64,000 nucleotides of DNA from the UHGV virus genome UHGV-0351052; one strand, given 5' to 3'. Position numbers and translations under genes: made by a program. Positions 5,987-53,873 of this stretch are shown in pieces (the stretch's first letter is position 1; each line of letters opens with the position of its first letter). The notes under the pieces were generated by a model that did no database searches, was not told the DNA's origin, and worked only from the letters and a program-made list of their open reading frames with translations. The DNA comes from a virus.

Positions 5987-6613
5987 TTAACCTCTATTCA
6001 TAAAAGCATTAAAAATTTGGTCATCAATAGAAACATTTACTTTAGACTGTTTTTCAGATGGCAATTCATATCCACATATTACAATTTTATGATCAATATC
6101 AAAATACACAGAAGCAATATGATTAATGATGTTTTCAGTAAAGTCTAAATCAACATCAATATCTTTTTGACCACAGCCCAAAGGATAAATAATGCGAGTA
6201 ATTCGATTATCTTTAACAAATATTCCACCGACATACTCTGTGCTGCGTTTAAAGTCTACACGCCGACGAAATGAAAAATATTCAGGCTCTTTATGAGCTC
6301 GGCTCATAGGGCACAACGAATAACTAGAATAAGAGATGTCAAATCCTACGCCTTCAATATGAACTAAATTGTCATGATTAAACCAATTATAATCATATGC
6401 CAAGTCCATTAGATTGTCATATGTAAAAGGCACCGGATTAACATCATTGGTCACAAGCATATAATTAGCAACTGCTATAATTTCATTATTTTTAACGAAT
6501 ACAAACCGTGATTGATGCGAATGACCTGGACCTGCGTTTTCACGATTAATGATATAACACTGGGCACCTTTATATTTGTACGTGTCTTTACACTTGTGCA
6601 TTTGATAAAGCAT
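5987..6613 (-). CDS. 61.2-like hypothetical protein (208 aa)
   Basis: ORF track; position between 61 and sp. Confidence 0.5.
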   Translation of the reverse strand: MLYQMHKCKDTYKYKGAQCYIINRENAGPGHSHQSRFVFVKNNEIIAVANYMLVTNDVNPVPFTYDNLMDLAYDYNWFNHDNLVHIEGVGFDISYSSYSLCPMSRAHKEPEYFSFRRRVDFKRSTEYVGGIFVKDNRITRIIYPLGCGQKDIDVDLDFTENIINHIASVYFDIDHKIVICGYELPSEKQSKVNVSIDDQIFNAFMNRG

Positions 6614-44226: not shown

Positions 44227-44808
44227 CTAACCGAGCTTTTTAGTTAATTCATTCCAATGTTTTCTACACAAAGAAACATAAATTTCATCACCAATACAGA
44301 TTTGATTACCTTCTTTAACGGGTGTTCCATCTTCCATTAATCGAGCTGTCATAATCGCTTTTTTACCACAATGACAAACTGCCTTTAGTTCAATAAGTTT
44401 ATCTGCGATCGCCAAAAGTTCTTTAGAACCTTCAAACAATTTTCCAGCGAAATCAGTCCTTAATCCATAAGCCATAACAGGAACATTATATGTATCAACA
44501 ATTCGGCTCAATTGATGCACCTGTTCAGTTTTTAAAAACTGGGCTTCATCTACAAATACACAATGAATATCTTTTTGTGCTTCAGCCCATTTATAGAACT
44601 CAAAAATATCCATATCATCTGTAATAATATTTGCTTCCTGCCTAATTCCAATGCGAGAAACGACTTCACAGACAGAATCGCGAGTATCAATAGCAGGCTT
44701 AAGAACTAATACACTCATTCCACGTTCTTTATAATTATGTGCAGCAGTCAAAAGAGAAGCAGATTTTCCAGCATTCATTGCTGCATAAGTAAAAATTAAA
44801 CTCGCCAT
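44227..44808 (-). CDS. tk: thymidine kinase
   Basis: 193 aa; Walker A NAGKSA; matches T4 Tk. Confidence 0.9.
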   Translation of the reverse strand: MASLIFTYAAMNAGKSASLLTAAHNYKERGMSVLVLKPAIDTRDSVCEVVSRIGIRQEANIITDDMDIFEFYKWAEAQKDIHCVFVDEAQFLKTEQVHQLSRIVDTYNVPVMAYGLRTDFAGKLFEGSKELLAIADKLIELKAVCHCGKKAIMTARLMEDGTPVKEGNQICIGDEIYVSLCRKHWNELTKKLG

Positions 44809-44998: not shown

Positions 44999-45180
44999 AA
45001 GGAATTTATATAATCAATAAGTTCTTGTTCTTTATTATCGAATTCTTTAGAAAGTTCTTCGTACTCGTTTGCACTAAAAGGACCGCATTCATTACAAACT
45101 TTTTCCAATTCACTATTTTTATCCATAACTTCGTGGATAAGAGAAAAGAGTCTGTCTTTTTGTTCTTTGCTTAGGCTCAT
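44995..45180 (-). CDS. small helical protein, paralog family member (61 aa)
   Basis: MSLSKEQKDRLFSLIHE. Confidence 0.5.
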   Translation of the reverse strand: MSLSKEQKDRLFSLIHEVMDKNSELEKVCNECGPFSANEYEELSKEFDNKEQELIDYINSL

Positions 45181-45346
45181 ATATTAATTTCCAGAAGTTT
45201 TAAAATAATTCGCTTTTGCTTAAATATTTCCATAGTTAAATGATCAGTATCTTTTTGGCCAATTCCAATGGCAAAACCTTTATTAGCAGCGAGTTCAATT
45301 AAATTATCAAGTTCACGTGACACTTCATATTGTAACTCAGAACTAT

Positions 45347-45559
45347 TCATTTCGGTTTACCTTCTTTAACGAAATCTGGATAAGGATAAAATCCCGAATA
45401 AAATCCTTCACCTTTATGATTGATGCATCCTTTATTAGAACAATAGCACCAATAATCGAAATCACAAGCCATTTCATCGTTGCATAAAGCAAAAACAACT
45501 GGCCATTTACACTTTTCACAATGGGCATTTTTAAGAATACTAGTTTGGCTCATAACCAT
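45347..45559 (-). CDS. Cys-rich small protein (70 aa), possible zinc binding
   Basis: Nine Cys including CEKC and CxC pairs. Confidence 0.45.
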   Translation of the reverse strand: MVMSQTSILKNAHCEKCKWPVVFALCNDEMACDFDYWCYCSNKGCINHKGEGFYSGFYPYPDFVKEGKPK

Positions 45560-45777
45560 GTCACCTTTAAGCAGTATTCTTCTACATGTTGTTTACGACC
45601 TTTCTTATCAATAAAGGTATATTCAACGAATGTTCCAATGTAGTCTTTATCTACATCATGTGGACTATTAATTGGACATTTAGTACGGCAAATGCGTTCC
45701 CATTGACGAATAATTACTGCCTTATTCTTTGGGTCATATGGATGTGGATAATGTATATTCATAATAATGGTTCCCAA
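45550..45777 (-). CDS. hypothetical protein (75 aa)
   Basis: ORF track. Confidence 0.5.
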   Translation of the reverse strand: MGTIIMNIHYPHPYDPKNKAVIIRQWERICRTKCPINSPHDVDKDYIGTFVEYTFIDKKGRKQHVEEYCLKVTWL

Positions 45778-46226
45778 TCAACAATCACAATTTCTAATTT
45801 AGAGGAATATGTATCTAAAATCCCCTCAATAATATCCCAGTTCCCTTTACCTATGCCTGCACCAATCCTAGGCATATAGATTGTAGGTTTAATCAGTTTA
45901 TTTTCACCAAACTCATTTAATTCTAACATACAATTCATTAAAGCGGAATACTCAAAATTTGGCCCTGGTTGAAATTGAGTATAAAGATTGAAGCAGTAAG
46001 CTTTATGAGTCCTAAAGTATTTTTCATAGACTGAATAAGAACCAAGTTTAGTTACATCACCCCATTCAGTCTGTAATTTATCAGCTTCCAAAATTTTAGG
46101 GAAAGCTTTGGTTAATTGACCTGCGACTCCAGCTTTCATCGTATGAAAACAATTGCATCCATGCGCAATATTTTTACCTTCAGCGAAAAGGGCGACAATA
46201 TCGCCCTTGATATATTTTACAATCAT
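45759..46226 (-). CDS. macro-domain-like protein (putative ADP-ribose binding/hydrolase)
   Basis: GDIVALF...NIAHGCNCFHTMKAGVAGQLTKAFP and IGAGIGKG motifs resembling macro-domain signatures. Confidence 0.5.
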   Translation of the reverse strand: MIVKYIKGDIVALFAEGKNIAHGCNCFHTMKAGVAGQLTKAFPKILEADKLQTEWGDVTKLGSYSVYEKYFRTHKAYCFNLYTQFQPGPNFEYSALMNCMLELNEFGENKLIKPTIYMPRIGAGIGKGNWDIIEGILDTYSSKLEIVIVDWEPLL

Positions 46227-46570
46227 TTAGTACTCAATCCTCGATTATAAGAATCTACCAAACGGTCAACCATTGAATGACAAGCGGCTTTATCTTTCTC
46301 CTCCGCAACTGAACATTCTAAGGTATTCCACTTTTTAGCATATCGTTTTAATAATGTATCGTTTTTGTATCTGCTTGATTTATCTCTTTCTCCATCTTTA
46401 TATGCATATATTAATTTCTGCGCAAATTCAGCTTGGCATGCTTTATTTTTCCCACAATAATCTGCCGCAGTGCGATTTACATATTCTCTAATTTCAGTAT
46501 ATGATGTATCTGCTGACGCAGAAGCAGAAAATGAAATTAATCCTATACATAAAACCAAAATTTTAGTCAT
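46223..46570 (-). CDS. vs: Vs-like protein (valyl-tRNA synthetase modifier), signal peptide
   Basis: 115 aa, the T4 Vs length, in the tk-regB interval. Confidence 0.5.
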   Translation of the reverse strand: MTKILVLCIGLISFSASASADTSYTEIREYVNRTAADYCGKNKACQAEFAQKLIYAYKDGERDKSSRYKNDTLLKRYAKKWNTLECSVAEEKDKAACHSMVDRLVDSYNRGLSTK

Positions 46571-47604: not shown

Positions 47605-47634
47605 ATTATACCACAGTCAAGAGGAAAAGTAAAC
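47605..47634 (-). promoter_or_regulatory. T4-type early promoter upstream of regB
   Basis: attata (TATAAT) 47605-47610, gtaaac 47629-47634. Confidence 0.55.
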
Positions 47635-52682: not shown

Positions 52683-53238
52683 ATTTTTCTAATAATAAAT
52701 CGCTTTCAAAATTGGGATTTTCTACGAATTTATCAAAAAGATCATCAACAATATTCAAGATATTCCTTTTACTAAGAATACGTTTATTTTCATGCTTCGT
52801 TTCAGAATCAACTATAAGAGTAAAGAAATATTTCTTGCCCTGAAATTTTACAGTAGTATCAATATAAAATAAATTTGACTTTTGTAAATTACGTTTAAAC
52901 CATGCGTCACTTAAACTATAAACGCCAAGATAATCATAATCGTTGTTTAAATAACAGACCGTCCATTCAGGAGAAACAAAATCAGTAAATTCAACATCAA
53001 AATCACACGTCAATAAATGAATTGATTCAATACTGTTAATAAGTATTCCAGGACGTATTAAAGACTTTTTACCTCTGGAAAATCTTCCAGAAAGACTTTC
53101 ATTAGTTTCATATGAAGAACCCCAATAATAATTACGCCCTTCTGCCATACGTTTAAGAGCATTTAGTAATTGGTCTGGAACATCAACCTGTCTTTGGAAC
53201 TCTTCAAACATTGAATTAAAATCACTTTGCATTTTCAT
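52630..53238 (-). CDS. hypothetical protein (202 aa)
   Basis: ORF track. Confidence 0.5.
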   Translation of the reverse strand: MKMQSDFNSMFEEFQRQVDVPDQLLNALKRMAEGRNYYWGSSYETNESLSGRFSRGKKSLIRPGILINSIESIHLLTCDFDVEFTDFVSPEWTVCYLNNDYDYLGVYSLSDAWFKRNLQKSNLFYIDTTVKFQGKKYFFTLIVDSETKHENKRILSKRNILNIVDDLFDKFVENPNFESDLLLEKFVKECREYVKAINVSSK

Positions 53239-53258
53239 TCCTACTTACTCCAAGTAAT

Positions 53259-53274
53259 AGGGGCCGAAGCCCCT
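53259..53274 (-). terminator. UUCG-tetraloop hairpin terminator
   Basis: aggggc-cgaa-gcccct. Confidence 0.55.
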
Positions 53275-53279
53275 TATCA

Positions 53280-53873
53280 TTATTTCAGAGAATTAATATA
53301 TTCCTGAACATCGGCAGAGGTAGTTTCAACCCCAGAAATATTGCCATTAAAGGTTTCAACTCGGGCGAGAGTATCTTCAATATCAACCTTAGTCAGCGCT
53401 GCAATTTCAACTACATCATCAGCAGTACTAATTCCAAGGGCATTTGCTGCACGAGTTTCACGGATATATTCCAATTTAACTGCAAGTTCTTGACGAGCAT
53501 CATCTAACTCAACTACTTTCTTAGCGATTTCAATTCGCATTTCAGCATAACCATCAGCTTTAGTAGTCAGCTGTTCAGCTGTTCGACGATATAGCAAGCC
53601 GAGTTTAGCATGCATTGTTACATCTTGACCTTCGGAAAGAAGCTTGCGAATTTCACGCTCTTTTGATTCGGCCTGCTTATTCTTTTCAATAACAAGTTCA
53701 CGAATACGTTTTTCTTCATTAATAGATTTAACAGAAGCAGTTTTTAGATCTTTAATTTTATCAAGCAGTTTTGCTGCTGCGGCAGTATACTGTTCTTCAA
53801 CAGATAGATTTTTAGCCATAGCAGAACTAAGTTTAGTGCGAATAAACTCAATAATTTTCTTCAGTGTGTTCAT
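53280..53873 (-). CDS. coiled-coil protein (197 aa)
   Basis: ORF track; heptad-rich. Confidence 0.5.

Follow-up and report, generated by a model that had tools for sequence, protein, structure and literature searches.

The window analyzed here, a stretch of 64,000 nucleotides from the UHGV virus genome UHGV-0351052, belongs to a Tequatrovirus genome that shares 99.2% identity over 2.2 kb with Escherichia phage JEP6, ∼99% with T6 and 98% with T2. On its minus strand, the ORF listing places at 45759..46226 an ATG-initiated reading frame for a protein of 155 amino acids, tk.4 or adfM, the latter name standing for anti-DarT factor Macrodomain. The gene is flanked by vs (46223-46570) and tk (44227-44808), a placement like that in T4, where the order at the matching positions is vs, tk.4, tk.3, tk.2, tk.1 and tk. 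A preliminary description had put a 155-residue protein at these coordinates in the tk-vs interval, and both the ORF listing and the synteny with T4 bear this out. The stop codon of vs and the start codon of tk.4 overlap in an ATGA at 46223..46226 (minus strand), with a GAGG 12-15 nt upstream of the ATG, and a second ATGA, read from the sequence at 45759..45762 on the same strand, joins the tk.4 stop to the tk.3 start. The G+C content of tk.4 is 0.342, against 0.348 for the window. Compared with T4, ∼380 bp of additional small ORFs separate tk.3 from tk.2 in the window.

Promoter-like sites in the region occurred at chance level (15 against a shuffled expectation of 16.4). Among them, the only good match lies upstream of regB, a sigma-70-like sequence with an extended -10 (TTTACT-17-TATAAT with TG, 10 of 12 consensus positions) at 47605..47633 on the minus strand; as a consensus match, this site may mark where a putative regB-vs.1-vs-tk.4-tk.3...tk transcription unit starts. 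No terminator-like sites were found on the minus strand from the regB promoter match to tk. The gene layout suggests that tk.4 is co-transcribed and translationally coupled with its neighbors, and the gene is probably made early in infection within the regB-vs.1-vs-tk.4-...-tk string. At the far end of the window, bases 1 to ∼330 of the minus strand carry what we take to be the N-terminal part of a ModA/ModB-like ORF (MIINLADVEQLS...YRGISKS...), which runs off the window edge; the Mod-like gene previously described at the window start thus holds, as recognized by eye.

The window protein and T4 Tk.4 (AF158101.6 60922-61389) are identical at 153 of 155 residues (98.7%), and this near-identity, together with the order vs, tk.4, tk.3, makes the window ORF the orthologue of T4 tk.4 (adfM). 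The labels attached to the gene in GenBank are diverse, including "macro domain protein", "phosphatase" and "high-affinity ADP-ribose binding module". More distant relatives are widespread: tblastn detected a homologue in ∼2,700 of 50,697 phage records (either Tk.4 or Adpp as query matched about this number), most of them annotated as "phosphatase" or "hypothetical", and the tk/regB/vs.1 context was kept in 27 of the 79 IMG/VR loci encoding relatives, at identities of 46-85%.

The macro-domain hallmarks quoted for this protein are all present, as KGDIVALF, NIAHGCNC, AGVAGQL, KAFP and RIGAGIGKG were each found in the tk.4 product and mapped to window coordinates, and the proposed macro-domain fold was upheld by Pfam, by profile search and by an AlphaFold2 model. 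Specifically, Pfam PF01661 matched Tk.4 residues 22-132 at 25 bits (gathering cut-off 22, E = 1.9e-5), and precomputed PF01661 matches were present in 64 of 120 relatives, among the matches listed. A single-sequence search of solved structures retrieved BT1257 (2e-8), yeast Poa1p (3e-5), TARG1 (3e-3) and T. aquaticus DarG (1e-2); with a 67-relative profile, the corresponding values were 2e-19, 2e-13, 1e-15 and 3e-12, and SCO6735 (3e-15) and M. tuberculosis DarG (3e-14) were matched as well. The AlphaFold2 model (mean pLDDT 95.6, pTM 0.91) displays the three-layer alpha/beta/alpha macro fold, and Foldseek ranked TARG1, Poa1p, BT1257 and DarG first for it. The macro-domain signal of Tk.4 is far beyond chance, and the gene, as indicated by the Pfam Macro match, the identity with T4 Tk.4, the AlphaFold2 model and its structural neighbors, encodes a single-domain macrodomain. 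Structure comparison with MacroD/YmdB had been proposed at the outset; here the macro fold was confirmed but the MacroD/YmdB class was not. Instead, Tk.4 is a member of the ALC1-like class (TARG1, DarG, SCO6735/BT1257, Poa1p), its nearest neighbors in both structure and sequence being ALC1-like and clearly apart from the MacroD, viral nsP3 and PARG classes.

Alignments and column counts located the putative active-site residues, all given here by minus-strand coordinates. In the H22-G23-C24-N25-C26 motif (46149..46163), column counts and a profile-guided alignment showed N25 to be invariant and H22 nearly so, and the motif aligned with H24/V25/N27 of SCO6735 and with the conserved macrodomain Asn (N23 in PhiKZ AdfM). 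Loop 1, M30-K31-A32-G33-V34-A35 (46122..46139), is the predicted ADP-ribose-binding loop of the form G-x-G-[VI]-A, in which residues 31-32 are K31-A32 in the window allele and G31-S32 in T4. D49 (46080..46082) is invariant in the Tk.4/Adpp family, and yeast Poa1p has Asp there as well, with Tyr found in SCO6735, BT1257, DarG and PhiKZ AdfM. The strand end N80-L-Y82-T83-Q84 (45975..45989) carries Q84 at the position of the catalytic Lys in TARG1 (K84) and DarG (K80), and of Gln85 in SCO6735. In the phosphate-binding loop 2, P119-R-I-G-A-G-I-G-K-G-N-W130 (45837..45872), G124 aligned with SCO6735 G128, and D125 of TARG1 is replaced by G126. The residues Q84, N25 and G124 were each invariant in 67 of 67 relatives, and the two predicted ADP-ribose-binding loops (G33-x-A35 and P119-x-I-G-x-G124) are likewise invariant in the family. 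For comparison with SCO6735, whose sequence was taken from an alignment and then aligned to the Tk.4 family profile, Tk.4 H22, G23, N25, Q84 and G124 corresponded to H24, V25, N27, Q85 and G128, and these five Tk.4 positions are invariant or nearly so across the family. The Gln, the conserved Asn and the loop Gly that characterize the Gln-type subclass (SCO6735/BT1257) are thus all found in Tk.4. The loop that follows Q84 (QFQPGPN) is shorter in Tk.4 and contains no lysine, whereas SCO6735 and BT1257 have an insertion there; the Gln region was aligned by HMMER profiles, since MAFFT misplaces BT1257 in it.

The function of the T4 orthologue has been addressed in the HIDEN-SEQ preprint of 20 November 2025. 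A T4 transposon library was screened there on a DarTG2-expressing host, with tk.4 as the single significant Tn-seq match; no other T4 gene was conditionally essential against DarTG2. Clean deletion of tk.4 rendered T4 DarTG2-sensitive, and the gene was renamed adfM (bioRxiv 10.1101/2025.11.20.689424). Enzymatic removal of ADP-ribose from DNA is said by the preprint authors to "seem likely" for Tk.4 (bioRxiv 10.1101/2025.11.20.689424). T4 without adfA and adfN had been found to be still fully DarTG2-resistant (PMC11825919), from which a further anti-DarT factor had been predicted, and tk.4 fills this gap. The preliminary description had suggested that a phage macro domain could erase a host-imposed ADP-ribose mark and had proposed a test of protection against DarT-type toxins. 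The suggestion gains support from the DarTG2 sensitivity of the T4 deletion, and the proposed test matches the published T4 result (bioRxiv 10.1101/2025.11.20.689424). The description was therefore correct, and in view of the near-identity to T4 Tk.4 and the published T4 phenotype, the finding is already explained: both the identity of the gene and its anti-DarTG2 role are known from T4.

Our favored reading, to which we assign a probability of roughly 0.7, is that this tk.4/adfM orthologue encodes an ALC1-like macrodomain of the Gln type, whose hydrolysis of thymidine-linked ADP-ribose in phage DNA shields the phage against DarTG2. In such a scheme, the host DarT2 of DarTG2 would use NAD+ to place ADP-ribose on thymidines of single-stranded phage DNA and thereby block replication; the macrodomain cleft of Tk.4 would bind the ADP-ribose, and hydrolysis of the bond at ribose C1'' would release free ADP-ribose and restore thymidine. 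The chemistry would most likely follow that proposed for SCO6735 and not that of DarG/TARG1, with Gln84 positioning the distal ribose, Asn25 in turn holding Gln84 (both residues are invariant), and the work being done by a bound water. In DarG and TARG1, Lys80 and Lys84, respectively, stand at the end of the central strand, and a DarG Lys mutant is inactive (PMC8120803). SCO6735, by contrast with these, has Gln at the equivalent position; it is a more efficient hydrolase of thymidine-linked ADPr-DNA than either DarG or TARG1, and it can rescue E. coli exposed to DarT (PMC9411070). Its activity is abolished by Q85A and Q85E, almost abolished by N27S and lowered by G128E, and a water-mediated mechanism has been proposed in which the Val25 backbone does the positioning (PMC9411070). 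Since the essential Gln of SCO6735 has its equivalent in Tk.4, thymidine-ADPr hydrolysis is plausible for Tk.4, and by analogy so is a chemistry that dispenses with lysine. We considered and rejected the idea that the absent lysine marks an inactive or binding-only domain, as SCO6735 with the equivalent Gln is highly active on thymidine-ADPr DNA. From these comparisons, we infer both the DNA de-ADP-ribosylation activity of Tk.4 and its Gln-based mechanism; complementation or catalytic-mutant data for Tk.4 were not found in the literature.

Several observations count against hydrolysis of DNA-linked ADP-ribose by Tk.4. The nearest characterized relative, Adpp, is a phosphatase and not a DNA hydrolase; the H-x-C-N-C motif and Asp49 are common to Tk.4 and the yeast phosphatase Poa1p; the longer Lys-bearing mobile loop of SCO6735, proposed to hold DNA, is missing from Tk.4; and the window allele departs from T4 at K31 and A32 of loop 1. 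Adpp (KNV71_gp137 of Vibrio phage Gary) matched Tk.4 with 34% identity over 140 aa (E = 3e-22; 36% in the multiple alignment), and the two proteins share H22, C24, N25, C26, D49, N80, Y82, Q84 and the PxIGxG..GG.W loop; judged by sequence, no DNA hydrolase is as near to Tk.4 as this metabolite phosphatase. A January 2026 preprint reported that purified Adpp converts ADPR-1''P to ADPR, that its presence enables NARP1 to defeat aRES, a RES-domain defence, and that it works only within the Adps-Adpp-Namat operon (bioRxiv 10.64898/2026.01.28.702374). KNV71_gp137 is identical to the Vibrio phage GRLPWR protein matched by Tk.4. The distant tblastn matches in Acinetobacter phage Aci05 and Vibrio phage GRLPWR lie between ribose-phosphate pyrophosphokinase and nicotinamide phosphoribosyltransferase genes, and these flanking genes are Adps and Namat of the NARP1 NAD+ reconstitution pathway. 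The association of Tk.4-family genes with NARP1 is real elsewhere (Aci05, Gary/GRLPWR and 3 of the 79 IMG/VR loci encoding relatives, where both NARP1 genes lie within 5 kb). In the window, tblastn with two divergent versions each of Adps and Namat gave no homologue at E <= 0.01, and the searched stretches of JEP6, the closest complete genome, chosen to cover the rest, yielded neither gene at this cut-off, the window aligning to the JEP6 interval between them. An Adpp-like role feeding NARP1 in this phage was accordingly rejected, with no Adps or Namat in the window or the searched JEP6 stretches.

These relationships bear on whether Tk.4 might be primarily an ADP-ribose-1''-phosphate phosphatase, as Adpp and Poa1p are, acting for example on the product of RES-type NAD+ phosphorolysis, so that the DarTG2 phenotype would be indirect or a side activity. 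We regard this as unlikely, although Adpp is the nearest characterized relative and has the signature residues in common with Tk.4, and although PHROG 335, which Tk.4 matched at 1e-64, is labelled "phosphatase". With neither Adps nor Namat found in the window and the searched JEP6 stretches, making ADPR would not rebuild NAD+ in this phage, and both NARP1 genes lie within 5 kb in only 3 of the 79 viral relatives. In addition, a phosphatase activity may coexist with a DNA activity, for macrodomains are often promiscuous. The activity of purified Adpp on ADPR-1''P favors the phosphatase (bioRxiv 10.64898/2026.01.28.702374), but the T4 phenotype in the HIDEN-SEQ preprint is specific to DarTG2, a DNA-modifying system (bioRxiv 10.1101/2025.11.20.689424). 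A wider proposal, which we advance only tentatively and which is possible without being probable, treats the Tk.4/Adpp family as one promiscuous Gln-type C1''-hydrolase directed against two unrelated NAD+-based defences, through DarT2-modified thymidines in one case and aRES-made ADP-ribose-1''-phosphate in the other, with genomic context deciding its use. If so, Tk.4 should possess both activities in vitro, Adpp and Tk.4 should cross-complement, and two separately described discoveries would represent one enzyme family. The family-invariant Asp49, common to Poa1p, could be a determinant of the phosphatase activity.

Two further accounts can be weighed against hydrolysis of thymidine-linked ADP-ribose. 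The preliminary description had allowed that the macro domain might tune the phage's own modifications, and more generally Tk.4 could erase ADP-ribose from proteins, either the Alt/ModA/ModB marks that the phage itself places on host proteins or marks set on phage proteins by host ADP-ribosyltransferase toxins. A Mod-like gene does start the window, Alt and ModA are annotated in JEP6, and TARG1 and SCO6735 de-ADP-ribosylate proteins too (PMC9411070). We nevertheless consider such a role very improbable: tk.4 lies ∼45 kb from the Mod-like gene without mod/alt linkage, and in the literature searched no such role of tk.4 was found, DarTG2 sensitivity being the sole reported phenotype. To our knowledge, cleavage of Arg-ADPr has not been demonstrated for macrodomain hydrolases, and this reaction is carried out by ARH-family enzymes. 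The T4 transferases are reported to modify arginine, such as Arg265 of the RNA polymerase alpha subunit (PMC8120803), and the tuning of Alt, ModA or ModB marks is unsupported. The other account, in which Tk.4 is a non-catalytic binder of ADP-ribose or, mimicking an antitoxin, inhibits DarT2 through direct contact, starts from the loss of both the catalytic Lys of DarG/TARG1 and Asp125 of TARG1, and from the precedent of other anti-DarT factors, namely AdfA R164H and the C-terminal domain of DarG, whose mode of action is to bind the toxin (PMC11825919). It would surprise us most of all, given that the Gln, Asn and Gly of Tk.4 are the residues needed for SCO6735 catalysis (PMC9411070) and are invariant over 67 relatives, and that the relative Adpp is catalytically active (bioRxiv 10.64898/2026.01.28.702374). 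Moreover, Tk.4 is a single macrodomain covering positions 2-145 of the 329-position DarG model, with no DarT-binding C-terminal domain.

In T4, tk.4 is the factor that explains DarTG2 resistance, and together with gp61.2 (AdfA, also encoded in the window) and gp30.3 (AdfN), adfM makes up a layered anti-DarT set of T-even phages. Our analysis refines the published account, in which the preprint likens the T4 protein to DarG, in that the active site belongs to the SCO6735 type, which has no lysine, and the nearest characterized relative is a metabolite phosphatase. Once known, the substrate of each clade would change many annotations and would show one fold reused against different NAD+-dependent defences.

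Comparison with known systems places Tk.4 outside the DarG family. The DarG macrodomains of T. aquaticus (5M31/5M3E) and M. tuberculosis (5M3I) share 18-21% identity with it; the catalytic Lys80 of DarG ("FPTK"), which is Lys in T. aquaticus DarG, M. tuberculosis DarG and PhiKZ gp104, is replaced by Gln84 in Tk.4 and all 67 relatives; and the C-terminal DarT-binding domain of DarG has no counterpart in the 155-aa protein. Against the PADLOC DarG model, Tk.4 scored 29.7 bits over the above positions, Adpp 44.6 and PhiKZ gp104 133, and against the NCBIfam DarG equivalog Tk.4 reached 25.1 bits relative to a cut-off of 250. As the phosphatase Adpp outscores Tk.4 here, similarity to DarG alone is no indicator of DNA activity. 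With one P. aeruginosa DarT2 query, by which a very divergent DarT could be missed, no DarT2-like sequence was found in the window, and beside the 80 closest bacterial homologues the same single query gave no DarT but noise alone (best E = 0.93 and 2.5). These homologues are stand-alone proteins of ∼150 aa amid unrelated housekeeping genes, and no recurrent toxin-like neighbor was found among them, which speaks against an origin of Tk.4 by capture of a DarG antitoxin; PhiKZ gp104 and the NADAR protein AdfN differ in this, as antitoxin capture has been proposed for both. A DarG homologue or "orphan antitoxin" identity was thus rejected, as Tk.4 has neither the lysine nor the C-terminal domain and no linked DarT was found with the one query. 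PhiKZ gp104, also called AdfM, is a stand-alone phage macrodomain that counters DarTG2 (Cell Rep 2026, PMC13309987); it strips DarT2-made ADP-ribose from ssDNA in vitro, and its N23A mutant is impaired (PMC13309987). In contrast to Tk.4, with which it shares only 17% identity, gp104 is a true DarG-type protein that matches M. tuberculosis DarG at E = 9e-25 and keeps the FPTK lysine. As one is of the DarG type and the other is not, they fall in separate macro subfamilies, and the two "AdfM" proteins are independent recruitments.

Among ALC1-like proteins, SCO6735 of Streptomyces coelicolor (PDB 5E3B) and BT1257 (PDB 2FG1/2AFC) share ∼20-28% identity with Tk.4. Tk.4 has Gly23 where SCO6735 has Val25, and Asp49 where both SCO6735 and BT1257 have Tyr. 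In SCO6735, an extended mobile loop with Lys89/Lys94 has been proposed to clamp DNA (PMC9411070), and its gene is chromosomal, bacterial and DNA-damage-induced, unlike the phage gene tk.4. Human TARG1/OARD1 and yeast Poa1p were the top structural neighbors of the Tk.4 model. TARG1 also hydrolyses thymidine-ADPr (PMC12879935), but neither residue of its Lys84/Asp125 dyad is present in Tk.4 (Q84, G126). Poa1p, with a role in tRNA-splicing by-product metabolism (bioRxiv 10.64898/2026.01.28.702374), has the H-x-C-N-C motif and the D49-aligned Asp as in Tk.4, but Ser at the Gln position. The gene for Adpp is flanked by Adps and Namat, and the enzyme has a small-metabolite substrate and counters aRES, whereas tk.4 lies beside vs and tk.3 and has its reported phenotype against DarTG2. 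The closest known system is T4 Tk.4 itself, with which the window gene has its length, its position between vs and tk.3 and its overlapping start and stop codons in common, while the window phage is T6/JEP6-like, not T4, and its protein carries the two loop-1 substitutions K31 and A32 relative to T4 Tk.4.

The window carries an ORF of 208 aa (5987-6613, minus strand) that is 99% identical to T4 gp61.2, which we take to be the AdfA of the nomenclature in PMC11825919. The T4 protein is described as an anti-DarT protein by LeRoux et al. (2022), as cited in PMC10286901. Given this identity, the window therefore contains two anti-DarT genes, 61.2 and tk.4, which lie about 40 kb apart.

Within loop 1, an ADP-ribose-binding loop of Tk.4 (residues 30-35; window 46122-46139, minus strand), the window has K31-A32 whereas T4 has G31-S32. 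Of the 67 relatives aligned, 57 carry Gly as residue 31; an allele identical to that of the window is present in Escherichia phage BYEP02. In GenBank OL964745.1, deposited as 'Escherichia phage T4' (159,752 bp), the Tk.4 match falls in two pieces (53142-53586) and is annotated as two 'macro domain-containing protein' CDSs, which suggests that tk.4 is split or frameshifted in the T4 stock behind this record. The interval between tk.4 and tk holds approximately 380 bases more in the window (45177-45559, minus strand) than in T4, and this added stretch contains two small ORFs, namely a Cys-rich ORF of 70 aa (45347-45559, minus strand; ...CEKCKWP...CNDEMACDFDYWCYCSNKGC...) and an ORF of 57 aa (45177-45350, minus strand).

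The preliminary description had placed a Mod-like gene at the start of the window, and this reading was upheld. The ORF at position 1 to about 330 (minus strand; MIINLADVEQLS...YRGISKS...) is presumably ModA/ModB-like, as judged by eye, and it represents only the 5' part of a gene that continues beyond the window start. At the equivalent place, phage JEP6, whose genome is the closest to the window, carries two adjacent genes annotated as 'modA' ADP-ribosyltransferase.

Among bacterial homologues of Tk.4, a 179-aa ORF that is YbiA/NADAR-like by eye directly adjoins the macrodomain gene in three loci (L059, 4481-5020, and two other Rhodobacteraceae), and a Nudix-like ORF, also recognized by eye, lies nearby in four (L034, 2037-2729, and three others). 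Such neighbors hint at a housekeeping, ADP-ribose-processing neighborhood. Genes annotated as RNA ligase and RNA ligase 2 (L002, 1-904; L003, 60-986 and 7910-8408) flank the Adps-macro-Namat cluster of the Acinetobacter and Vibrio phages.

Compared with characterized macrodomains, Asp49 of Tk.4 (window 46080-46082) is invariant across the Tk.4/Adpp family and is matched by Asp at the aligned position of yeast Poa1p, whereas this position is Tyr in DNA-acting SCO6735, BT1257, DarG, and PhiKZ gp104. Asp49 may mark the phosphatase-capable clade. Adpp, the ADP-ribose-1''-phosphate phosphatase of Vibrio phage Gary, scored above Tk.4 with the DarG models of both PADLOC (44.6 and 29.7 bits, respectively) and NCBIfam (34.9 and 25.1 bits). 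Since a metabolite phosphatase thus outscores an anti-DarTG2 factor, likeness to DarG is no predictor of the phage macrodomains that counter DarTG2.
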